Shown: positions 4,417 through 50,681, counted from the stretch's first letter. The stretch: DNA of 64,000 nt from Desulfocapsaceae bacterium (GCA_963674815.2 CAXXTV010000009.1:73515-137514), one strand, 5' to 3'. Program-made: numbers and translations. Notes: generated by a model from the sequence alone, not told the origin.

Positions 4417-6834
4417 GTGAACGTATTCCGGCTGTTCATCATCACACTGTTCAGTAGTGGACTGCTCCTTTTTTGCTCCCCTCCCGTAAAAGCTCTGTCC
4501 AACAACCCCGTCGAAACGACGCTGGCCTATTTCCGCCAGGTGCCGTGCCTGGAAGAAGAGCAGTATCACTATTACAAGGGCATAATCCGGGCACTTTCCT
4601 ACACCAGGATGAGAGCGTTCAGGGCTTTCTGCTCACTGCCGGAAATCAGCGCCGACGAGGCCATAGACTCGCTCCAGAAACTCGTTTTTTATCCGGTGCG
4701 CTTTGACCAGGTGGAAATCCTGGAAATGTTTTTTAAAACAGGGAATGCAACCTTTGACGGCGGCTGGACTGTCCTTGAAAAAACGGCTGGGATGAAATTC
4801 ACCGCCGGCCAGGCCGCAGCAGAACTGAAGGGCTCAGCCGAACTCGAGGCGGATCGTTTCCTTTCTATCATCGACACGCTGCGAACGCTTGACGACAGCG
4901 GCTGCTGGGCTGCCCGGGCCCTGTTCGGGGTTACGGGAATCAGCGGCCCGAGTGTAGTGCGCGGGCTGACGGTTATCAGTTCGATGAACGATCGACAGCA
5001 TCTGGCGGTTGAAAAAGCCTGCAGCCTGTTCAGCAAGGATCCGCAGCACATCCCGACACTGCTGGAGTCGCTGAAGTACCTCTCCGAAACCGAGGCAAAC
5101 ACGGTTGCAGCCCTGTTTTCCTCGGAACAGATTACTCCCCGGAACGGACTCGACTGGCTGCAAAACTATTTTGCCCTTCCGCCCGGCAATGGTGACCAGC
5201 ACTTTATCGAGCTTCCGGATACAAAAAAATCACAGCTCCTTGCCGCATTTTCAGACGGAGCAGATTACCTGATCTGGAAGCTCAACAACCTGCACAGTGT
5301 CACAGACGATTATGGAAGTGAAATCGGCACCGGCACACTGGTCAACAGCAGTCAGGAACGACTCCAGGAGCTGTTTGAAAAACTTCACCCGGCAGCCCGG
5401 CAGCACTATGAAACAAGATTCCAGGCGGCGCTGACACAAAAGCAGCGCTACGATGCGGCCGCCATCCTCAAGGATGCCACGGCCCGCGCGCGCAGGCTGA
5501 CGGCACAGGACCTCAGTTCTGCGACTGTCTACATCCTGCTGTCCCATGGCAGCGAACTCTACGATTCTTCTTTTCGTGATATCCTGGTGCCGGTCCTGCT
5601 CGAGCGAATCAACAGGATGCACCGCGGCAATCTGCTCGCTTTCCTGATGCAGACAGACCCCGAAAACGGCTACATCTCCGATTTCATCGTCAGCTGTGCG
5701 CAAAAAGGAAAACTGACCGCGTTTTTCCCGACAGATCCCGGCGAGCAGCGCGACATTCTTGACCTGGTGGCCAGCTCCGCCTTCCGTGACGAACAGAGCC
5801 TGATTTTATTTTCCGCCACATTCAGTGCGCTCCTTGAAAAAATTGAGCCGGAAGTGCGCACCTACCTGATTGAAAGGATCATTGCGGCTATCCGGCAGCA
5901 GGAATCAACCTTTGCCCTGCAGCTCCGGGTCATCCTTCAATATTACCGGATCGAACACCCGGATCTTCTCTCGGCGGGAGATCTTGAAAAAATAACAAAG
6001 GTCATCCGCCGCTATGGCGAAATTGACCTGTCACCATTTGTCTCCACCGATTTTTCCCGCTGGAAGGCGGACCGCCGTCTCGCCAGTCTGTCGGTATTTC
6101 AGCATGACGACGATGGCAATGTCTCCTATCGCTCAAACGGCCGAAACCTCCTGATGAACGGTTATCAACCCAGGCTTTCGCGTACGCTCTCACTGCTTCC
6201 CGAGGATGATGCCCGCCAGCTCAAGGCCCGGCAGCTGATCCGGCAGGCAAAACAAAACCCCGGCACCGTGATTGGCGAGCTCTTCGCCCTTTCAACCACG
6301 GCGCCGGTCGTTGTCGAATGGTACAAGACGGTCAACGACATTGAATTGTCCCATGCGGTTACGGTATACCAGAATGAGATCACCCAGCAGCAGCTGCTCA
6401 AACAGTTTCTTGAAGAGAAAATGGAAATGTTCGCCCAGCGCGGCCACAGTTACTGGAGGGCAGAGCAGCTCATTGAGCCGATGACAAAGATCATCGAGAG
6501 CGGGGCCGTGTCGAGAGACGCTATTTCGGCAATCAACCGCTTCCTGAGTATCGGCTCCTGCGGCGGATTGAAAATTTATACCCAGTTGAACAAATTATTC
6601 AACCATTCGGTCGACATCCTGGCGACGATCGGCACCGGCAAGGCAGTGGTTAATGACCCTTACAACCGAAAACTCTTTGAGATCATAGCCACAACCTCTG
6701 ATACTGTCGGCTGGAAGGAGATCAACCGCCAGTCGGCATCGATATTTGCCGAAGGCAGGGGTGCAGATTATCTGCAGCCCGGATCACTCCCGGCGATTCT
6801 CCATAAAATGATGGACACACGGAAACCCAACTGA
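4417..6834 (+). CDS. hypothetical secreted protein (805 aa)
   Basis: Long uninterrupted ORF with a GTG start. Hydrophobic N-terminal signal-like segment (FIITLFSSGLLLFCSPPVKALS). I recognise no family motif. The stop overlaps the holA start. Confidence 0.5.
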   Translation: MNVFRLFIITLFSSGLLLFCSPPVKALSNNPVETTLAYFRQVPCLEEEQYHYYKGIIRALSYTRMRAFRAFCSLPEISADEAIDSLQKLVFYPVRFDQVEILEMFFKTGNATFDGGWTVLEKTAGMKFTAGQAAAELKGSAELEADRFLSIIDTLRTLDDSGCWAARALFGVTGISGPSVVRGLTVISSMNDRQHLAVEKACSLFSKDPQHIPTLLESLKYLSETEANTVAALFSSEQITPRNGLDWLQNYFALPPGNGDQHFIELPDTKKSQLLAAFSDGADYLIWKLNNLHSVTDDYGSEIGTGTLVNSSQERLQELFEKLHPAARQHYETRFQAALTQKQRYDAAAILKDATARARRLTAQDLSSATVYILLSHGSELYDSSFRDILVPVLLERINRMHRGNLLAFLMQTDPENGYISDFIVSCAQKGKLTAFFPTDPGEQRDILDLVASSAFRDEQSLILFSATFSALLEKIEPEVRTYLIERIIAAIRQQESTFALQLRVILQYYRIEHPDLLSAGDLEKITKVIRRYGEIDLSPFVSTDFSRWKADRRLASLSVFQHDDDGNVSYRSNGRNLLMNGYQPRLSRTLSLLPEDDARQLKARQLIRQAKQNPGTVIGELFALSTTAPVVVEWYKTVNDIELSHAVTVYQNEITQQQLLKQFLEEKMEMFAQRGHSYWRAEQLIEPMTKIIESGAVSRDAISAINRFLSIGSCGGLKIYTQLNKLFNHSVDILATIGTGKAVVNDPYNRKLFEIIATTSDTVGWKEINRQSASIFAEGRGADYLQPGSLPAILHKMMDTRKPN

Positions 6835-10975: not shown

Positions 10976-11317
10976 ATGAGCAACTGCCTGTTCTGTAAAA
11001 TTGTTTCGGGCGAGATTCCCTCCGACAAACTCTATGAGGACGATGATCTGCTGGCATTCTGGGACATTGCACCCCAGGCCCCGAAACACTTCCTGGTCAT
11101 TCCCAAAAAGCATCTGAGCGGCCCTTCAGAGGTAACGGAAGCGGATGAAAAACTGATCGGGAAAATAATGCGGCTCGGTGCAAAACTGGCAGCAGATCAT
11201 GGAATCGGCGACGATTTCAGGGTGGTATTCAACAATGGAGCCGGTGCAGGGCAGACGGTTTTTCATATCCACATGCATATCCTCGGGGGCAGGCCGATGG
11301 GCTGGCCTCCCGGCTGA
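10976..11317 (+). CDS. HIT-family (histidine triad) nucleotide-binding protein
   Basis: 113 aa. CLFCKI N-terminus and the HIHMHILGG histidine triad. Confidence 0.9.
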   Translation: MSNCLFCKIVSGEIPSDKLYEDDDLLAFWDIAPQAPKHFLVIPKKHLSGPSEVTEADEKLIGKIMRLGAKLAADHGIGDDFRVVFNNGAGAGQTVFHIHMHILGGRPMGWPPG

Positions 11318-41044: not shown

Positions 41045-41173
41045 CAACGCGCTGCAGTCGAGCGAAACAACAGCTGAGCACACCTGGACATAACCGGCAC
41101 TCTCTTGAGTATCAGCTTGGTGCCGGATCAAAACGACAGTGCGATTATGCCAGGCAGTCACTCTCTTCCACCA

Positions 41174-41201
41174 GGCCCGTAACCAGTCAAAGTTACGGGC
41201 C
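41174..41201. repeat. copy A of the leuU-terminator-like hairpin (GGCCCGTAAC-8 nt-GTTACGGGCC)
   Basis: Perfect 10-bp stem. The arms are identical to the hairpin at 50557-50584 and only the loop differs. It is followed by GCCGAA..ACTC, which resembles a collapsed tRNA-Leu 3' end. Confidence 0.6.
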
Positions 41202-41714
41202 GCCGAAACTCAGCCTTCTGTCTAGCCTGTTCTATCCACTCAAATCATGTGCTGATTCGATTCCGGAGTCACACCAACTGCGGCATCCAGGACAGGACCG
41301 GCGTCACTTGCCTTTTACCGATACTCCTTTCAGACAAGCAAAAGAGGCATGCCCGGCGCCGGGCAACGGGCTTCTGCTGGACAACTGAGTGATGATTACA
41401 GCAAACAGGTACTCATTTACCGGAAGAGCCGTGTAATCGACGTTTATCTTTCATGTATCACCCCGACCGAATCCCTTTTGTCTGGTATTGTGGATAATGT
41501 TTCCGGAAATCCGGATAAAAAAAGAGTTTTATTTCCAGTCAATTAGTTGACAAGATGCACATATTGACTGGAATCTCTGTGGGTTACCATAAATACCACA
41601 ATGTGGTGCAATAATTGCATAATTGTAATTACGTTTAGGCAACCCTAATTGATTATCGGTACATGATGTCTAATCGAACAAAGTCACATTAACTAGGCTC
41701 TGGAGATATATGTT

Positions 41715-42616: not shown

Positions 42617-42955
42617 ATGAAACATGAAAACATGTCTCCGCGTGCCATGGCGCAAGAGCTAGGCAACAGGGTGAGGCAGGCCAGGCTCCGGGCTGACCTG
42701 ACCCAGTCTGAGGTAGCGTCACGATCCGGCCTGAGCAGGAGGACCATCCTCAACGCTGAAAAAGGCAAGGTCCAGCTGGAGAATCTTGTCGCTATCCTGG
42801 CAGCGATGGATATGATCGCACACCTTGATATGTTTTTACCTGTGCAGGAAATATCCCCGATCCAGCTGGCAAAACTCAAAGGGCAGCAGCGGCAGCGGGC
42901 GTCAGGCACCAAGGACAAGAAAGCTCCAGGCAAGGAGTATAAACCATCATGGTAA
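42617..42955 (+). CDS. hipB: XRE-family HTH antitoxin (HipB-like)
   Basis: 112 aa. HTH (LGNRVRQARLRADLTQSEVASRSGLSRRTILNAEKG). Overlaps the hipA start by 7 nt. Confidence 0.75.
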   Translation: MKHENMSPRAMAQELGNRVRQARLRADLTQSEVASRSGLSRRTILNAEKGKVQLENLVAILAAMDMIAHLDMFLPVQEISPIQLAKLKGQQRQRASGTKDKKAPGKEYKPSW

Positions 42956-44268
42956 TGGATGTCGCCCGGGTAAAATACAGGGGACATACGATTGGTGCTG
43001 TCAGTTTTGACACTGAAACGGGCAGAGGCTCTTTTGAATTTGAGCCTCGTTTTATCGAAACAGGAATCGAGCTGTCGCCCATAAAAATGCCGTTGTCCCG
43101 AAAAATATATTCATTCCCGGAAGCTGACCCGGCAGCGTTTCATGGTCTGCCTGGAATGATCGCCGACTCGTTGCCTGACGATTTCGGCACCGCTGTATTA
43201 AATAGTTGGGCGGCCAGCCAGGGTATATCGCCCGCTGCTATTACCCCACTGCAACGCTTGAAATACACAGGCAAACGCGGCATGGGCGCCTTAACCTACC
43301 ATCCCGCTGTCCGCAAGAAAAACCTGAATGCTTCACAGCATGTCGAAATTCAGTCTCTGATTGCCATTGCCCAGGAAATCCTGGATAAGCGAGAGCATTT
43401 CCAGGTAAACCTTGGCACCCGGGGCCGGGAAGACAAAGAAGCAATGCTGGCCTTATTGTCGGTGGGTGTCAGCGCGGGTGGTGCCAGGCCAAAAGCGGTA
43501 CTCGCGTTTAACCGTGATTTCACACAGGTGCGCTCAGGGCAGACAGATGCTCCGGAAGGGTTTACTCATTATATAATGAAATTTGATGGCGTCAGTGAAC
43601 ACAATACAGACAGGGAGACCTTTGGCGACCCGCTCGGATATGGAGCGATGGAGTATGTCTATTACCTCTTGGCGACTGCTTGTGAAATAGAAATGATGCC
43701 GTGCCGCCTGCTCGATGAAGGGAAAAGGCGACATTTTGTCACCCAGCGCTTTGACCGGCAGGGAAATAAAAAGAACCATGTACAAACGTTAAATGGCCTG
43801 GTGCATGTCAGCTACAGGCAGGTAGGCTCCTTCTCGTATGCTGAACTGCTTGCGACCGCAAGAGAGCTTAAGTTAGGCGCCGATGACGCAATGCAGCTGT
43901 TCAGACGCATGGTGTTCAATGTTGTGGCACGAAACCATGATGATCATTCAAAAAACGTTTCATTCATGCTCGATGATCAACATCAATGGAAATTAGCCCC
44001 CGCTTACGACCTGGCCTACAGCTACAAGCCCGGCAGCCGTTGGGTAGATAGTCACTGGATGACGCTCAATGGGAAACGGGACAATTTCACCCGGGAAGAT
44101 TTTTACAGCTTTGAATCACTGAGTCCGTTATTCAGCAAGCGAACAATTGACGGGATAATAGATGAGGTTACAGAGCATGTTTCAAAATGGAAAACCTTGG
44201 CCACCGAGCACAGCGTGCCGAAATCATTGGTCAAGCTGATAGGAAGCAATTTACGCCTGTTGCTCTAG
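42949..44268 (+). CDS. hipA: HipA-family serine/threonine kinase toxin
   Basis: 439 aa. HipA N-terminal coupling region (GSFEFEPRF, LPGMIADSLPD) and kinase core (GGARPKAVL, ARNHDDHSKNVSFM, LAPAYDL). Confidence 0.85.
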   Translation: MVMDVARVKYRGHTIGAVSFDTETGRGSFEFEPRFIETGIELSPIKMPLSRKIYSFPEADPAAFHGLPGMIADSLPDDFGTAVLNSWAASQGISPAAITPLQRLKYTGKRGMGALTYHPAVRKKNLNASQHVEIQSLIAIAQEILDKREHFQVNLGTRGREDKEAMLALLSVGVSAGGARPKAVLAFNRDFTQVRSGQTDAPEGFTHYIMKFDGVSEHNTDRETFGDPLGYGAMEYVYYLLATACEIEMMPCRLLDEGKRRHFVTQRFDRQGNKKNHVQTLNGLVHVSYRQVGSFSYAELLATARELKLGADDAMQLFRRMVFNVVARNHDDHSKNVSFMLDDQHQWKLAPAYDLAYSYKPGSRWVDSHWMTLNGKRDNFTREDFYSFESLSPLFSKRTIDGIIDEVTEHVSKWKTLATEHSVPKSLVKLIGSNLRLLL

Positions 44269-44525
44269 CAATAGCTTGAGAGTACAGTTTTCTGAGGCCG
44301 TCCTGCGAAAACAAATAAAAAACCGAGTGTGATTCCATAAACGATATCTCACTCGGCCATTCTTCACCGGCGAACCTGCCTGGCAATCATTAACAGCATA
44401 TACGACATTGTAGTGTTGTTTATCTCGACACCAGCTATATCAGGGTAATCTTGAATAAACGCAATGAACAGAGACCCAACAGCTACAAATGAAAAACTTA
44501 TCGGAAATCCAGATGTTACTCAGAC

Positions 44526-44599
44526 AAAAAACACGAAAGACCCGTAACTATCTAAAGTTACATGTTTTTACGTCAATGGTGCGAAGACGGAAGGTGAAC
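44526..44599 (-). repeat. degenerate duplicate of the tRNA-Leu 3' end plus its terminator hairpin (att-like remnant, copy B)
   Basis: 44526-44599 aligns by eye, with roughly three quarters identity, to 50545-50620. Shared parts are the A-run, CGAAAG, the CCCGTAAC...AAAGTTAC hairpin, then TGGTGCGAAGACGGAAGGTGAAC versus TGGTGCCGAAGGCGAGACTCGAAC. Confidence 0.65.
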
Positions 44600-44845
44600 A
44601 GGTCATTCTGCATTGACGTTGGTTCATCGAGGAACAGTATCCCGCCCACATGATCTGCTAGGAAACTGGAGTCGTTGATTCTTCGGCAGCCACCGCATCA
44701 GTTACTAAAAAAGAAGAAAGGAAGTGTTTCTATGGATTTCTGAGCATGCACTTGATATCGTGGAGAAACAAAAGATACAAGCTATAGAGAGCCCAGAACT
44801 TCTCTATGAGAATCCCATAATTAAAATGCAAATAGATTTCCTCTC

Positions 44846-45922
44846 GTGAATACAAAACAAAAACTCCACGACTCTTTCATATTCTGCGTGTTCATGATGC
44901 TGGGGTCAATGCTGCCCGGTTGTATCATGGTACATGAACAGATTATCCCACATACTTTTTACACCCTTCTTGATCTCAAAGTTGAGGACGGGGATGTCCT
45001 GTGCTTACTAAAAAAACAAGAGACTCGATCGGAATTATCAGTAATGCACGCTATCATGAGTGAACCTTCAAAAACAGCTTACTCAAGTCAATCGGTCGCT
45101 CTTTTATCGTTTGGCCTGGAAGAGCTAATGAACGTGGATGAAGAAACAATAGAGGTTAAAACGCAGACAGAGGTAATTCATCGCAAAAGCATATTTGGAA
45201 ATATCCATCTAAGCATAATCAATGGAAGCTTACTGTTCGGAAGAGATGTCGTAAATGATTTAAAATATTTTGCTTTTATAGAGTTGTACGGAGAGAAGAA
45301 ATCCTACCCTCTATATGAGGATCCTAACGTCAGAGTGAAAATGAAGTCGCTGGACAATGAAAGAATGTATTATACGACCAACGACACGGATTATTACGTT
45401 TATTTCATCAAAGAGAAGAAATCCCAAAAACTTGAGTATACATTGGCTTCGCCTGATCCGGACAATGCAAACCTTGGCCCCGTCGAGTCATTAAGAGAAG
45501 ACCTTTTCATAGAATATGTCGGCGAGGATGCCAGTGTATTTAATAATGGAGTTCAAACGCCATACAAGGTGAAAATTGTAAATACGAGAACTAATCAGAC
45601 TTATTCCAATTTCATGCTCCCAAGCTACAGGTTGATATATGATTATCAGAACATTGAGCAGCATGAGGAGATACTTTCGAGGGCAGATTTCAGGGGAATT
45701 GCTATTTCAGATACATACGGTAATGTCTTACACTATTTATCTAAAGAGAAAATTCCGGAATATAGCAGAGCAATGTTCTACGAGGGTAAAGTAATCGCAG
45801 CAGGAACATCTGTACATCATGATCGTCTAGGGGATTTTCAATATATCGACATATTTATTTGGGACTATAAAAACGACAAACTGATCACTAAAAGTTATCG
45901 TTGCGGCAGGGCCGGCTTATAA
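44846..45922 (+). CDS. hypothetical protein, possible lipoprotein (AT-rich island)
   Basis: 358-aa ORF with a GTG start. N-terminal hydrophobic segment ending in LPGC. No recognisable family. Confidence 0.5.
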   Translation: MNTKQKLHDSFIFCVFMMLGSMLPGCIMVHEQIIPHTFYTLLDLKVEDGDVLCLLKKQETRSELSVMHAIMSEPSKTAYSSQSVALLSFGLEELMNVDEETIEVKTQTEVIHRKSIFGNIHLSIINGSLLFGRDVVNDLKYFAFIELYGEKKSYPLYEDPNVRVKMKSLDNERMYYTTNDTDYYVYFIKEKKSQKLEYTLASPDPDNANLGPVESLREDLFIEYVGEDASVFNNGVQTPYKVKIVNTRTNQTYSNFMLPSYRLIYDYQNIEQHEEILSRADFRGIAISDTYGNVLHYLSKEKIPEYSRAMFYEGKVIAAGTSVHHDRLGDFQYIDIFIWDYKNDKLITKSYRCGRAGL

Positions 45923-45927
45923 AGACG

Positions 45928-46009
45928 GTTAGTCTGAAAAGCACCTATCAAGAAATAGCACCATATGTGACATTGTGGTGCTTCTGAGCAAATCCTCTAA
46001 CGGTGTCGA
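45928..46009 (+). repeat. about 80-bp imperfect-palindromic repeat, copy 1
   Basis: Shares CCTATCAA...AGCACCAT.TG.GACATTGTGGTG.TT.GA.CAA.TCCTCTAA.GG.GTCGA with 50286-50361. Contains the hairpin 45957-45982 and outer GTTAG/CTAAC arms. Confidence 0.7.
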
Positions 46010-46115: not shown

Positions 46116-46388
46116 ATGAAGGAACAATACACTAAGAAGCTTGGCAATGTCATTGAGATTAACGAATCTGAAGTACAGAATCACTTGGGTGAGTTGGTTC
46201 GCACGACGGTCGAAGAAACATTAAATTCAATGCTTGACGCCGAAGCTGATGCTTTATGTAACGCAACGAGGTATGAGCGAACCGAATCTCGCACTGATAC
46301 AAGGGCTGGTTACTATGAGCGTGATCTGCATACCCGCGCTGGAGAGGTAAAGTTGAAAGTCCCCAAACTGTCGATCAGCGTGCAATAA
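46116..46388 (+). mobile_element. IS256-family transposase, N-terminal remnant only (about 85 of about 400 aa)
   Basis: LNSMLDAEADALCNATRYERTESRTDTRAGYYERDLHTRAGEVKLKVPKL parallels IS256 Tnp (...EYERTENRQSQRNGYYERSFTTRVGTLELKVPR...). It terminates inside the 32-bp tandem duplication. The DDE core is absent. Confidence 0.8.
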
Positions 46389-46424
46389 TGAGCCCCAAAC
46401 TGTCGATCAGCGTGCAATAATGAG
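46361..46424. repeat. perfect 32-bp tandem duplication (2 copies) at the IS256-remnant junction
   Basis: CCCCAAACTGTCGATCAGCGTGCAATAATGAG occurs at 46361-46392 and again at 46393-46424. Confidence 0.95.
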
Positions 46425-46833
46425 CCCTTTGCAAGGGGATCTCGTCTAATCTTTTTTTCCGTGTTAATGCTCTATCACTTGATTCGTCTATAATCGGTTT
46501 ACTTATAGAGATATCACTATCATCGATAATGAATTTAGATGTCTCCCAGTTATTTGATATTTCTTTTGAGAGTCTGTACTGATGAATGGGATTTGGTATT
46601 TCCAAGGTTCGCCTTAATGTTCCAACCCTTGCAAGATTATATTTGATTGTGCTAGCAGATTTTTTAACACTAGTAATAGCTTCAGGTAGACCTAATATAT
46701 CAACAAAATCGCCAGCCACTGCTTCTGCAAATGAATCTGTATTGAAAGGAGGTGGTAATTCTGCTGGAAAATATCCAAATTTTAACAAGTCCGGAATGTC
46801 GATCATATTTTCGCCTAAATGTAATTTTCCCAT
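46375..46833 (-). pseudogene. N-terminal fragment of an Abi/UG-type reverse-transcriptase-like gene (truncated)
   Basis: GYFPAELPPPF plus YNLARVGTLRRTLEIPNPIHQYRLSKEI resembles the pre-RT and RT motif 1-2 region (IPK..G..R.L.IP...) of defence-associated RTs. The ORF stops in the 32-bp duplication before any YxDD motif. Confidence 0.4.
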
Positions 46834-47133
46834 TATGATGATGTATTTGTATTAATTATATTATCAGATCACTTGATAGGTTACTGCAATAGTTAGGGGT
46901 AACCCAACCAAAACAAATTTGCAAAGTAATTTCTAATAGTTAAGAATCATTCTTATAACAATCAGAATTGACATATTCCTATAAGAATGCAATGAAGCGT
47001 TTCTTAACATAGCAGACATACCACAATGTAACCTAACAAATTGTCCCTCGACTTTTCCAACTCTATCCTGCTAAAATAATAAGATTATTCCAGTTGAATC
47101 TTAATCACCAACTCCCAAAAGCGGAGATCAGGA

Positions 47134-47712
47134 ATGAAATGGGCTTTCGTTGACTACGAAAACACAGGTTCCCTTAAGGAGCTTAAACTCTCAGATTACG
47201 GTCGGATACTGGTTTTCTGTGGACCAAAGAACACTCAAATAAAATTCGGCTCAATACCGACAAATGAATTTTGTAGTATTGAAATCATTGGGGTCAGCAC
47301 AATGGGCTCAAACAACCTTGACTTCCATATAGCATTTCAACTTGGTCGATTCCATGAATCTGCAGGACCTGAAATAGAGTTCAATATTATTTCAAACGAC
47401 CATGGCTTTAATGGCCTTATAAGCCACCTCAAGAAGATTGGCCGCAAATGCAAAAGAATTCCTACCAAAACGATAGTTGAACCACCAAAAAAGAATGTGG
47501 TTTTAAGTGAGTGCGCATCTATTGTTATTACTCGGCTCACAGTATTAGATGGCAGAAAACGCCCGAGAAAAAAAGCAGGGTTAGTTAACTGGATAAAGTC
47601 GCAGTGCAATGGCATTTCCAATGGATCCAAACCTAGCCATGTATTCAAGGAATTAACCACTGCTAACCTGATTGGAGAAGATCAGAACAATATTCGTTAC
47701 AATCTTAAATAA
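47134..47712 (+). CDS. NYN/PIN-like nuclease-domain protein with C-terminal winged-helix-like region
   Basis: 192 aa. WAFVDYEN, NNLDFHI and IISNDHGFNGLISHLKKIG match the acidic-residue pattern of NYN/LabA-type domains (D.eN ... D ... SgD.DF). RBS GGAG is upstream. Confidence 0.5.
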   Translation: MKWAFVDYENTGSLKELKLSDYGRILVFCGPKNTQIKFGSIPTNEFCSIEIIGVSTMGSNNLDFHIAFQLGRFHESAGPEIEFNIISNDHGFNGLISHLKKIGRKCKRIPTKTIVEPPKKNVVLSECASIVITRLTVLDGRKRPRKKAGLVNWIKSQCNGISNGSKPSHVFKELTTANLIGEDQNNIRYNLK

Positions 47713-47714
47713 TC

Positions 47715-48272
47715 ATGCTATTCGAACGAGAATCTCTCCACTGTGGAAAGGCGTTGTTGGCATCGCTTGCTAAAGAGATTGAAGAAGTTGAGTCTGTCCT
47801 ATCCATTCAACAATGGGCACCTGATTTTTCTTATCCATCCAAGTCAACAACACTTCGTAATCAAGCCGCTTACAATAAGTCCCTATCAACATCTCTAGAT
47901 GAACTGGGATGGCAACTACAACCACGTCTTAGTCATTGTCCAAGCCTAATAGGAGATTTTGCAAAGAGACTTGTTTTTGGTGAAATTCAATTTGGAAACA
48001 GTACGACTCTATATCGAGACTTCTACAAATTTCAGTATGGGCTTCAAAATGGTTTATTGAGTCTTGCAATATTGGTTGTACCTTACGACGAATATTCGTT
48101 CTTTCCAACCCGTTCTGCAAGCGTTAAGAACATGGCTAATTTTTCTTTAGCAAAAAGATATTTCACTGTTTTACCGATATCAGTACCTACGATTATCTAT
48201 GGATTACACTCAAATGGACATAAAACATCTGCTGAAAAAACCTCTACAAGAGCACCACAGATGTTGCTCTAA
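47715..48272 (+). CDS. BglII-fold restriction-endonuclease-like protein
   Basis: 185 aa. GDFAKRLVFGEIQFGN parallels BglII DFGKRDTLVEVQFSN (D-x8-E-x-Q). LAILVVPYDEYSFFPTRSA...LPISVPTIIYGL parallels VAIIITKGHMFPASNS...VPIRLVGL. Confidence 0.55.
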   Translation: MLFERESLHCGKALLASLAKEIEEVESVLSIQQWAPDFSYPSKSTTLRNQAAYNKSLSTSLDELGWQLQPRLSHCPSLIGDFAKRLVFGEIQFGNSTTLYRDFYKFQYGLQNGLLSLAILVVPYDEYSFFPTRSASVKNMANFSLAKRYFTVLPISVPTIIYGLHSNGHKTSAEKTSTRAPQMLL

Positions 48273-48275
48273 ATT

Positions 48276-49232
48276 ATGATAGAAATGGCATCAAATAAAT
48301 TTTCAAACTTAACTTCCATTATCCTCTCCTTTGCTATCCTTATAGTAACAGGTTCAGCACTCATAATTGGTGCCGGGTCTGATGGTTTTATGTGGATACT
48401 AGCTGCAATATTTCTGTACTGCTCTGTCCATGCTTTTATCATTACTACCCTCCACGAAAAGAAAACGAGCATCTCTTCTCAAATATTTAAACGATTATTC
48501 CCAGACAAAGCACCTACTCCAAGACATAAGGCTAGAGAGCCATCACACGCCGGATCTTTTGCCAGTAAACAAAAGAGGAGTGACTCGACAAACTCAACAA
48601 GCAAAAGCAACAATTCCTCACTATCGATAAGAGATTACCTTTTCAAAAACCACCACCAGCTTAATGATGAAATCATTCATGCTATTGAATGGAAACGATT
48701 CGAGTTGTTATGCCATTTGATTTTCGAGGCATCAGGATACAATTCGGAATTAACTGGAGATGGGGCTGATGAAGGCATAGATATACGGATATACGATACA
48801 AGCGTTCCTCGGAAACCACTCTATCTTGTCCAATGTAAGAAATATCGAGGTAATCAGAAAATAAGCAGAGAGAATATCCAACAGTTGAGAGGACAGATGG
48901 CTACCGAGAATGTTGAGAAAGGTGGCTACTGCTCAACTGGAAGCTTTACTGGTCCTGCCAGAGAATACGCAAAGACTAACAATATTGAGATATTCGACCA
49001 AAAGAAAATCATCAAGTCATTCAATAAACTGAACAATTTTGACAGAGAAATTACCCTGAGGAGATTACTTAATGGAGATTACTGGACTCCTTCCTGCGCG
49101 ACGTGCGGTGAGAAATTTAGACCCAAGAAGACCAAGAAAGGCAATATGATCTGGTGGTGTAAAAGCTCTCATACGCACGGCTGGAGTAGTATTTCCTATT
49201 ACGAAGCGGCACCAATAAAGAACGTTCATTAA
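48276..49232 (+). CDS. membrane-anchored Mrr-like PD-(D/E)xK restriction endonuclease with C-terminal zinc ribbon
   Basis: 318 aa. Two N-terminal TM helices. Mrr_cat pattern FELLCHLIFEASGY...GDGADEGIDIRIY...LYLVQCKKYRGNQKISRENIQQLRG...GGYCSTGSFTGPAREYA. C-terminal CATCGEKF...WWCKSSHTHGW. Confidence 0.7.
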   Translation: MIEMASNKFSNLTSIILSFAILIVTGSALIIGAGSDGFMWILAAIFLYCSVHAFIITTLHEKKTSISSQIFKRLFPDKAPTPRHKAREPSHAGSFASKQKRSDSTNSTSKSNNSSLSIRDYLFKNHHQLNDEIIHAIEWKRFELLCHLIFEASGYNSELTGDGADEGIDIRIYDTSVPRKPLYLVQCKKYRGNQKISRENIQQLRGQMATENVEKGGYCSTGSFTGPAREYAKTNNIEIFDQKKIIKSFNKLNNFDREITLRRLLNGDYWTPSCATCGEKFRPKKTKKGNMIWWCKSSHTHGWSSISYYEAAPIKNVH

Positions 49233-49625
49233 TTGGAATTCATCACAATGAAATTACCAGTTTTTTTATATAATTTTTCAAAAACTTACGTACCCTCTGT
49301 ACTTTTTCTATGTATCTCGTATTTGCTGACGAACAATTTTGCAAATATTCCTAAAATCATTTTCCCTTTTCAATCTACTGAGCGATATCAACATGCAGTA
49401 CCCCTAAACAAGCAAACACCAGAGGAAAATCATCCCAGACCCTCAGCAAAACCTATACCAACAGCTCCCAAGTACTACTATATAGTTGAATTTACTAATG
49501 GTGGAAGTATGAAAGCCAAAGAGATCAAGACAAACAATAATATCGTCAAAATTATTATCAGTGATAGTTATGATATGACCATGTCAAAAAGTGATATTAG
49601 ATCGATCAACAAATACAGTTTATAA
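49233..49625 (+). CDS. small hypothetical membrane protein
   Basis: TTG 49233 abuts the previous stop; ATG 49248 is an alternative. One hydrophobic helix (YVPSVLFLCISYLL). No known motif. Confidence 0.4.
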   Translation: MEFITMKLPVFLYNFSKTYVPSVLFLCISYLLTNNFANIPKIIFPFQSTERYQHAVPLNKQTPEENHPRPSAKPIPTAPKYYYIVEFTNGGSMKAKEIKTNNNIVKIIISDSYDMTMSKSDIRSINKYSL

Positions 49626-49671
49626 TTACACACCGAACCTAATAGTATCTGAAGCTCTAGGTACATAAACT

Positions 49672-49899
49672 ATGACCACCTATTCATATGACAACAGGCC
49701 TTCTATGACCAAAGGAGCCATTTCAAGCCGTATCAGGCATATTGCGAAAGAAAACGAGTATCATGTTCGAAAAAGTAAGGGGCTCTGGTATATCGGAAAT
49801 ATGGCCTGCCCTCCAAGAGCTACTCCTCACGAAGGCTTAACTGACGAGCAAGCAATAGAGTGGATAAAAGAGAACGGCTATTTCAAATATCCGGTCTGA
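49672..49899 (+). CDS. small hypothetical protein (75 aa)
   Basis: ORF in the same orientation within the operon. No recognisable motif. Confidence 0.35.
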   Translation: MTTYSYDNRPSMTKGAISSRIRHIAKENEYHVRKSKGLWYIGNMACPPRATPHEGLTDEQAIEWIKENGYFKYPV

Positions 49900-49914
49900 C
49901 TAAAAGCAAGTTAT

Positions 49915-50253
49915 ATGGCCGAATCGAAAGTATTTGAATGTACTAATTGTGGGAAAACCGTTGAGTCTTGGTCTGACGGAAATCCATACTATTATGATTG
50001 GGAAACAGGAAAGAAGAAATATGCCTATCACCCCAATCACGAGGGTCTCGCGCTTTGCATAGGAAATGATGAAGAGCATCTCTGCCTATCTTGCGGACAG
50101 GAATTCAAAATAGATAATCAAACCCCAATTTCCAAATGTCCAGACTGCTCATCGAATCAAATATCAAAGACAATTTTTCTTGATGACGAAGAGTGTCCAT
50201 TCTGCAAGAATGGATTGTTCAAATATTACCCGAAGCGAAGTTCAATTTCTTAA
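49915..50253 (+). CDS. double zinc-ribbon protein (112 aa)
   Basis: Four CxxC pairs (CTNC, CLSC, CPDC, CPFC). Confidence 0.45.
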   Translation: MAESKVFECTNCGKTVESWSDGNPYYYDWETGKKKYAYHPNHEGLALCIGNDEEHLCLSCGQEFKIDNQTPISKCPDCSSNQISKTIFLDDEECPFCKNGLFKYYPKRSSIS

Positions 50254-50285: not shown

Positions 50286-50361
50286 CACAGAAAACGCCTA
50301 TCAACCAGTAGCACCATGTGCGACATTGTGGTGTTTTGAACAAGTCCTCTAATGGGGTCGA
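50286..50361 (+). repeat. about 80-bp imperfect-palindromic repeat, copy 2
   Basis: Same orientation and architecture as 45928-46009, including the hairpin 50310-50335. Lies directly after the last operon gene. Confidence 0.7.
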
Positions 50362-50544: not shown

Positions 50545-50584
50545 AAAAAAACGAAAGGCCCGTAACCAATTAAAGTTACGGGCC
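50545..50584 (-). terminator. rho-independent terminator of tRNA-Leu (copy C of the repeated hairpin)
   Basis: GGCCCGTAAC/GTTACGGGCC 10-bp stem at 50557-50584. On the minus strand it is followed by TTTCGTTTTTTT (50545-50556). Confidence 0.8.
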
Positions 50585-50595
50585 TTTTATGTAAA

Positions 50596-50681
50596 TGGTG
50601 CCGAAGGCGAGACTCGAACTCGCACGACCGTGGGCCACTACCCCCTCAAGATAGCGTGTCTACCAGTTCCACCACTTCGGC
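50596..50681 (-). tRNA. leuU: tRNA-Leu (anticodon GAG), CCA encoded
   Basis: The reverse complement reads GCCGAAGTGGTGGAACTGGTAGACACGCTATCTTGAGGGGGTAGTGGCCCACGGTCGTGCGAGTTCGAGTCTCGCCTTCGGCACCA. It has a 7-bp acceptor stem, anticodon loop TTGAGGG, a long variable arm and a GTTCGAGTC T-loop. It lies 12 nt after secG, as in the E. coli secG-leuU arrangement. Confidence 0.95.

Follow-up and report, generated by a model that had tools for sequence, protein, structure and literature searches.

A probable stack of independent nuclease modules in a tRNA-Leu island of a Desulfocapsaceae bacterium, with a conserved gene pair for a predicted membrane-tethered Mrr-type protein and a small Sm-like partner

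SNIPE, a nuclease bound to the membrane, cuts phage DNA while it is injected and joins a transmembrane (TM) part to a DUF4041 and a GIY-YIG domain; its description attributes to the membrane anchor the role of keeping the nuclease from cleaving host DNA (PMC13190303). Other close points of comparison are the Mrr type IV enzymes, with a Mrr_cat nuclease domain and an N-terminal winged-helix DNA reader, the single-gene Mrr-like candidate PDC-S02, the type II enzymes BglII, BstYI and BamHI, and the PIN_7 family, which has been assigned to the NYN group of PIN-like nucleases and is of unknown function (Matelska et al., 2017, PMC5499597). We analyzed a stretch of 64,000 nt from a Desulfocapsaceae bacterium (GCA_963674815.2 CAXXTV010000009.1:73515-137514; hereafter, the window) that contains a block of six co-oriented and tightly packed open reading frames (ORFs) on the + strand, at positions 47134-50253. 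A preliminary description of the window had read this block as a six-gene operon with three predicted nucleases, and proposed it as a single undescribed defence system. All six ORFs are present on the same strand and, as it had anticipated, scans of the six proteins with PADLOC, NCBIfam, Pfam and PHROGs assign them to no named system. Nevertheless, the six-gene unit does not hold, because the three nuclease genes do not occur together outside a narrow lineage, and the block is probably a lineage-specific stack of independent nuclease modules, set in a variable AT-rich spot between two copies of tRNA-Leu(GAG), rather than a six-component machine. One module would be ORF1, a PIN_7/NYN-type nuclease that stands alone, ends in a winged-helix-like domain and is not tied to a partner gene; a second would be ORF2, a stand-alone BglII/BstYI-fold endonuclease that elsewhere lies among other solitary nucleases; and the third would be ORF3 plus ORF4, the sole true multi-gene unit of the block, with ORF5 and ORF6 as probable local orphans. 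What is new here is the ORF3-ORF4 pair and two conserved, unexplained families of solo nucleases; each is an increment to known classes and not a new principle.

The independence of these modules is argued by the lack of co-occurrence of their genes elsewhere and by their drift among close relatives. The preliminary description had itself named conserved co-occurrence and synteny of the three nuclease genes as a check of its proposal, and the outcome does not favour it. A scan anchored on PIN_7, with one genome per species, yielded 18 loci, comprising one close relative of the window, two with C-terminal fragments only, and 15 others that, together with the Nitrosococcus locus L003, make 16 independent loci; none of these 16 contains a homologue of the BglII-like gene (ORF2), of the TM-Mrr gene (ORF3) or of ORF4 within ±8 kb of PIN_7, and no neighbour family recurs among them. 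The anchor set for the BglII-like gene consists of 81 independent loci (80 from metagenomes and one from a genome), and none of them carries the other nuclease genes of the block, PIN_7 included. Likewise, both PIN_7 and the BglII-like gene are absent from seven distinct TM-Mrr loci (L004/5, L006/7, L106, L107, L108, L115 and L114), the contribution of L114 to this count holding only over its reach of 2.1 kb.

Sharing of the block is limited to relatives at 71-90 % identity, with the order ORF1-ORF2-ORF3-ORF4 found in L001/L008 and, with changes, in L113. The BglII-like gene of L113 (2696-3019) has suffered an in-frame loss of residues 66-129 that removes D81, E90 and Q92, and this locus keeps PIN_7, TM-Mrr and ORF4, with an extra ORF of 148 aa ahead of the TM-Mrr gene; in L114, a different gene stands in front of ORF3-ORF4. 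In comparisons with L001, the ratio of nonsynonymous to synonymous substitutions (dN/dS) is 0.10-0.20 for ORF1-ORF4, and 0.07-0.20 throughout when hipA is included, which indicates that ORF1-ORF4 are real genes under purifying selection. Synonymous divergence (dS) from L001 is uneven, amounting to 0.46 for ORF1, 0.79 for ORF2, 1.65 for ORF3, 1.95 for ORF4 and 1.30 for hipA, the values of ORF3 and ORF4 being near saturation; the difference between ORF1/2 and ORF3/4 hints at separate ages or recombination histories within the block.

ORF3 (48276-49232, + strand), whose true start is probably at 48285, codes for a protein with two predicted TM segments, a basic linker, a Mrr_cat nuclease domain of the PD-(D/E)xK type (PF04471, E=6.9e-27) and a C-terminal zinc ribbon, in agreement with the architecture first noticed. 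The hydrophobic segments span residues ~9-35 and 37-60 and are followed by a stretch with 10 lysines or arginines (K/R); this arrangement, a two-TM hairpin preceding a K/R-rich stretch, argues for a cytoplasmic location of the nuclease domain, as far as topology can be predicted from the sequence. Among 18 homologues, the invariant positions include E138-E143, D165, D169 and Q186-C-K188 in the nuclease domain and C274, C277 and C295 in the zinc ribbon (CxxC...C), for which the Pfam zinc-ribbon match is weak. The family is small, with 32 clusters, and no relatives were found in IMG/VR. Matches of ORF3 in PADLOC and NCBIfam (PDC-S02, ZorD and mREase_IV) concern the nuclease domain only. Assignment to Zorya was rejected, since the match to ZorD is confined to profile positions 937-1062 of 1071, the C-terminal nuclease part, and the island contains neither a helicase nor ZorAB.

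ORF3 resembles the Mrr type IV enzymes in its full Mrr_cat domain with a conserved E...D...QxK, and in being a stand-alone nuclease gene without a methyltransferase in a variable region. However, there was no match to the Mrr_N winged helix, and the place of this N-terminal DNA reader is taken in ORF3 by the two-helix membrane hairpin and a low-complexity linker; ORF3 also differs in its additional C-terminal Topo-type zinc ribbon and in the obligate small partner gene, ORF4, that follows it. PDC-S02 is its best match in PADLOC (E=7.4e-17), but only residues 100-249 of ORF3 are aligned, with profile positions 157-306 of 334 (150/334 positions), leaving the N-terminal part unmatched; moreover, PDC-S02 is defined as a single gene, whereas ORF3 always occurs with its partner. 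ORF3 therefore appears to be a variant form of the Mrr family or of PDC-S02, and not simply one of their members.

The partner gene, ORF4 (49248-49625, + strand), was delimited mechanically from a TTG at 49233, but comparison with its homologues favours, as its most likely start, the ATG at 49248, 15 nt past the ORF3 stop codon; from there it codes for about 125 aa. With this start, the gaps from ORF1 to ORF6 are 2, 3, 15, 46 and 15 nt, so that the tight packing of the genes stands and the 0-nt gap of the preliminary description, which had given a spacing of 0-46 nt, does not. ORF4 belongs to no family in Pfam, PADLOC, NCBIfam or PHROGs. An AlphaFold2 (AF2) model, with a predicted local distance difference test (pLDDT) score of 81 overall and ~96 for residues 81-129, shows a long N-terminal hydrophobic helix, a proline-rich disordered linker and a six-stranded Sm-like small beta-barrel, for which Foldseek retrieves Hfq and lipoproteins of the DUF903/YgdI type (2rb6, template modelling score 0.75, root-mean-square deviation 1.4 Å). 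The helix, which carries the motif FLYNFSKxYIP, is hydrophobic but stays below the Kyte-Doolittle threshold of 1.6; the small membrane protein predicted earlier is thus probable, and not certain.

Homologues of ORF4 are scarce, with only 20 representative clusters among 1.84 billion proteins, and in each of 10 distinct loci one lies 14-18 nt downstream of ORF3. These ten loci comprise the window, its close relatives L001, L113 and L114, and the distant L004/5, L006/7, L106, L107, L108 and L115. This is the only invariant linkage in the block, and the two proteins may interact. ORF3 and ORF4 thus constitute a rare and uncharacterized pair with strictly conserved linkage. Its genomic settings lend mixed support to a defensive role, and those in favour are as follows. 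The pair of L107 is part of a Tn3/relaxase element, where it is flanked by GmrSD_C-like and HNH-HIT genes. In L004 (4957-5033) and L006 (7835-7911) it lies beside tRNA-Arg(acg), between the genes for RNase E/G and LptD, which is another tRNA-adjacent variable spot for TM-Mrr/ORF4. A distant solo relative of ORF3 on a Vibrio plasmid adjoins AbiE.

From this architecture and from the SNIPE precedent, we propose that the pair may act on DNA at its site of entry. ORF3 would be anchored in the inner membrane by its N-terminal two-helix hairpin, with its catalytic domain and zinc ribbon in the cytoplasm, and ORF4, as a membrane-associated partner, would gate it or set its position. DNA that appears at the membrane, for instance from an injecting phage or a conjugating plasmid, would then be cut by the tethered nuclease, and tethering, or control by ORF4, would keep the enzyme off the chromosome and nucleoid. 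As in SNIPE, one polypeptide would combine a membrane anchor at its N-terminus with a DNA-binding element and a nuclease domain that are both cytoplasmic. The two are not homologous, however, since SNIPE has DUF4041 and GIY-YIG domains, neither of which is matched in ORF3, as opposed to Mrr_cat and a zinc ribbon; additionally, the parts of the SNIPE report consulted present a single polypeptide and mention no partner gene, whereas ORF3 always comes with ORF4. SNIPE is the closest functional analogue of the action proposed for ORF3, and not a homologue. That ORF3 and ORF4 make up an undescribed two-gene immune module, in which a membrane-tethered Mrr-type nuclease gated by an Sm-like partner destroys DNA as it enters, is a tentative proposal that we hold to be possible rather than likely. 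The pair is a compact candidate for DNA restriction at the entry site and, if the proposal is true, would add a second way, non-homologous to the first, of realizing the SNIPE strategy.

ORF2 (47715-48272, + strand) encodes a solo BglII/BstYI-fold endonuclease-like protein without a methyltransferase, which matches PF09195 with 26.3 bits for a cut-off of 26. The family profile also matches BstYI (1sdo, E=1.9e-4) and BamHI in an alignment over D-F-x-K-x5-E-V-Q-F-G, the catalytic motif of those enzymes, and PADLOC and NCBIfam return a weak match to a generic profile of type II restriction endonucleases (REase_II). Residues D81 and E90 are invariant in the family and Q92 is nearly so, leaving D-x8-E-x-Q intact. 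ORF2 thus shares with the BglII, BstYI and BamHI type II enzymes the fold family and this motif, but members of its family are shorter (about 167-185 aa, as against 203 aa in BstYI and 213 aa in BamHI) and unusually conserved, at 50-70 % identity across distant metagenomes, with ~300 homologue clusters at 50-86 % identity. There was no match to the BglII-like gene in GenBank phages, and in IMG/VR a relative appeared on one contig only.

The surroundings of the BglII-like genes also depart from those of type II restriction-modification (R-M) systems. No DNA methyltransferase family is listed among 78 immediate neighbours, which include one small-molecule methyltransferase-like protein (Methyltransf_11/25), and in about 80 loci the gene has no adjacent DNA methyltransferase and is accompanied instead by other solitary nucleases. 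Approximately one quarter of the 78 neighbours contain solitary-nuclease or defence domains (Mrr_cat, HNH_2, DpnI, MrcB_N, NucS_C, NOV_C, REase-ARP, HEPN_AbiU2, SIR2_2, EVE and SRA-HNH); the neighbours as a whole are heterogeneous, and several of those with such domains show translational coupling with the BglII-like gene. Since a methyltransferase is consistently missing, ORF2 cannot act on unmodified, host-type DNA as a conventional type II enzyme would, and it may be modification-dependent or otherwise regulated. The members of this large and highly conserved family could be restriction nucleases of a new kind, widespread and stand-alone, and the family poses the question of how the host DNA is spared.

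The BglII-like gene is often found at no more than 35 nt from, or overlapping, another solitary nuclease gene on the same strand, with a partner that differs from locus to locus. Close pairings involve HNH_2 (L030, L074, L081, L092 and L090), REase-ARP (L103), a NucS_C-like gene (L038), HNH-HIT (L043), NOV_C (L062) and HEPN_AbiU2 (L051). An HNH-HIT fusion protein adjoins both the BglII-like gene in L043 (1038-2048) and the TM-Mrr/ORF4 pair in L107 (6614-7591).

ORF1 (47134-47712, + strand) codes for a solo nuclease-like protein of the PIN_7 family (NYN group; PF18475, E=1.7e-23), and with it all three nuclease folds named in the preliminary description are borne out. Residues D7, E9, N10, D63, N88 and D89 are invariant among 16 homologues, and family members from the sampled Gamma-, Delta- and Epsilonproteobacteria are 53-69 % identical. 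The AF2 model (pLDDT 82) consists of a Rossmann-like N-terminal domain followed by a C-terminal domain of three helices and a beta-hairpin, similar to a winged helix. A sequence search of the PDB with the PIN_7 profile gave no match, and structural matches found there by Foldseek are weak, led by the NYN domain of MARF1 (probability 1.0, E 0.016) and followed by CARF/PIN folds; the MARF1 lead is in keeping with the earlier assignment of PIN_7 to the NYN group (PMC5499597). According to the model, ORF1 would resemble the proteins with NYN and OST-HTH domains (MARF1/LabA-like) in coupling a minimal NYN fold to a small helical domain of nucleic-acid-binding type, but differs from the MARF1 NYN in that its structural matches remain weak (E about 0.01). 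A VapBC-type toxin-antitoxin was considered for ORF1 and rejected, because no conserved or antitoxin-like neighbour was found in the 16 loci and the NYN group is not that of VapC.

The neighbours of PIN_7 are GNATs, housekeeping genes, transposases and one SIR2_2 protein. Distant relatives of PIN_7, with 35-38 % identity, occur on 3161 plasmid records, mostly IncF, of which 2727 are conjugative. In the example inspected, the Klebsiella IncF plasmid L109 (6977-7579), the gene comes directly after traX-finO; in the Marinobacter plasmid L110 (6001-6546), it lies downstream of a MobH relaxase gene and is separated from it by one hypothetical gene. In phages, there were only distant matches (~33 % identity), on large uncultured phage contigs. 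The presence of these relatives on plasmids suggests a role for ORF1 in plasmid biology at least as much as in defence. A plasmid origin of the block was rejected, because ORF2 and ORF4 have no plasmid match and ORF3 has only distant solo relatives there; a phage origin was rejected as well, since the block genes are essentially absent from viral contigs.

Several observations weigh against the stack of independent modules or against a defensive role for its parts, any such role being inferred. The neighbourhood samples are limited, with 16 PIN_7 loci and many short metagenome contigs; among the 82 BglII-like loci scanned, at least 1 kb was available upstream in 49 and at least 1 kb downstream in 40. 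The spacing of 2-3 nt between ORF1, ORF2 and ORF3 is kept in three related genomes, and a scan, which is weak evidence, found no + strand terminator inside the block; such tight spacing also fits a functional operon, and co-regulation or a coupling particular to this lineage is conceivable. With regard to defence, the neighbours of PIN_7 are mostly housekeeping or GNAT genes and not defence genes, the ORF3-ORF4 pair is in housekeeping contexts at L106, L108 and L115, so that a defence context does not exist everywhere, and the sole representative of PDC-S02 that has been tested left E. coli unprotected from T4, T5 and T7 (10.1101/2024.09.26.614923).

The last two observations also speak for an alternative for the pair, namely that ORF3-ORF4 encode a non-immune, membrane-bound DNA-processing nuclease, for DNA uptake or competence, for surface exclusion of conjugative DNA, or as an addiction toxin with ORF4 as its regulator, the other nucleases being selfish or addictive passengers. 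The location of the pair on a mobilizable element in L107 is in line with this alternative, as are the more than 3000 plasmid records with distant PIN_7 relatives and the order traX-finO-PIN, which point to plasmid biology rather than to phage defence. Yet the positive-inside charge would place the nuclease of ORF3 in the cytoplasm and, to our knowledge, this is not where the known uptake nucleases (EndA/NucA-type) act. Furthermore, Mrr_cat is typical of restriction-type enzymes, the pair is situated in variable tRNA-adjacent spots (the window, L001, L004 and L006), and in L107 it is flanked by GmrSD_C-like and HNH-HIT genes. We thus consider a non-immune function of this kind rather unlikely.

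Less probable still, and in our opinion improbable, is a single new defence system of several nucleases with cooperating parts, made up of ORF1-ORF6 or, at the least, of ORF1-ORF4, for instance a membrane sensor or effector combined with RNA- and DNA-targeting nucleases. The co-orientation of the genes, their gaps of 2-46 nt and the lack of an internal terminator would be expected of such a system; likewise, the order of ORF1-ORF4 is maintained in L001/L008, in altered form in L113, all four genes are under purifying selection and named systems remain unmatched. These features are outweighed by the failure of the nuclease genes to occur together beyond one narrow lineage in the 16 PIN_7, 81 BglII-like and seven TM-Mrr loci, by the absence of ORF5 and ORF6 from the nearest relative and the different gene preceding ORF3-ORF4 in L114, and by the persistence of the remaining genes in L113 after deletion of the catalytic core of ORF2, together with the unequal dS of ORF1/2 and ORF3/4. 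That the block has no present function and is the decaying cargo left by an island integrated long ago is very improbable, for the island is indeed eroding (no integrase, and remnants of a Drt4 gene, of a transposase gene and of a tRNA copy) and L113 illustrates that ORF2 can be lost, but ORF1-ORF4 are intact, with all their catalytic residues, and evolve with dN/dS of 0.10-0.20 relative to L001.

Of the two remaining genes of the block, ORF5 (49672-49899, + strand) is a lineage-specific orphan of 75 aa, outside any conserved unit, that forms a singleton cluster and has no match in Pfam, PADLOC, NCBIfam or PHROGs. ORF6 (49915-50253, + strand; 112 aa), also lineage-specific, contains four CxxC pairs, corresponding to the double zinc ribbon reported initially; the pairs were read from the translation, and all the zinc-ribbon profile matches are below the cut-off. 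Both ORFs are absent from L001/L008, which have an unrelated ORF of 154 aa in their place. Concerning transcription, a promoter-like site was located upstream of ORF1 (47048-47077) by a scan that, like the one for terminators, is weak evidence, and the genes of the block are probably co-transcribed as one transcript.

The island that harbours the block conforms in most respects to the preliminary description. GC content is 0.38-0.41 across 44-50 kb and 0.50-0.57 in the flanks, which substantiates the AT-rich block that had been perceived. Its right boundary is a tRNA-Leu(gag) gene (50596-50681, minus strand) with its terminator hairpin at 50554-50587, and its left boundary is a decayed second copy of this gene (44538-44600, minus strand), consisting of the terminator and ~25 nt of the 3′ end. 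In the relative L008, two complete tRNA-Leu(gag) genes (5400-5483 and 11224-11309) flank the island at equivalent positions. The terminator hairpin occurs once more, 93 % identical, at 41173-41201, to the left of hipBA, and these copies suggest that insertions have taken place here repeatedly. None of the island ORFs scanned has a domain of a DNA methyltransferase, specificity subunit, helicase or ATPase; lacking a methyltransferase, the block is not a type I-III R-M system, and profile scans detected no integrase in the island.

The other genes that had been recognized around the block, an IS256 remnant, a truncated gene resembling a reverse transcriptase and hipBA, were all identified. The remnant (46116-46388, + strand) is the N-terminal part of an IS256-family transposase (Transposase_mut, E=5e-15, profile positions 5-83 of 379) and is absent from L008. 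The reverse transcriptase gene (46375-46833, minus strand) is a pseudogene remnant coding for an N-terminal fragment, of 152 aa, of a Drt4-type enzyme (PADLOC Drt4, E=2.3e-33) that spans only profile positions 2-122 of 542; the copy in L001 is truncated too. Precisely where the IS256 remnant meets the truncated Drt4 gene there is a perfect tandem duplication of 32 nt (CCCCAAACTGTCGATCAGCGTGCAATAATGAG x2; 46361-46424). Genes hipB and hipA occupy positions 42617-42955 and 42949-44268.

A repeated motif of ~45 nt (…TAGCACCAyGTrCGACATTGTGGTG) bounds the gene blocks of the island. Its right-hand copy is at 50291-50336 (+ strand), with others at 45938-45983 and 44373-44418, and inverted copies of its core at 47013-47035 (minus strand), within the gap of 300 nt between the Drt4 fragment and ORF1, and at 41585-41604. 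The motif is kept at equivalent positions in L008 (7106-7142, ~7887 and 11026-11065), where the cargo beside the right-hand copy differs, and it could be a recombination site. Two other identities were rejected: it is not the end of the IS256 element, being present in L008 without the insertion sequence, nor a structured RNA, as it has no match in Rfam, only a weak hairpin and folding z-scores from -1.9 to +0.5. An array of integron cassettes (a cluster of attC sites lacking integron-integrases, CALIN) was considered because homologues of the block genes occur in arrays of small co-oriented genes with GNATs; this was rejected, since an attC scan of the window and of 112 loci, crude and insensitive as it is, found no excess over shuffled sequences and an integrase is absent. 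Finally, an ORF of 358 aa at 44846-45922, without a family match, has a lipobox-like N-terminus (…MLPGC…) and is conserved in L001, and in L114 a lipoprotein-like gene of 358 aa lies directly downstream of ORF4.

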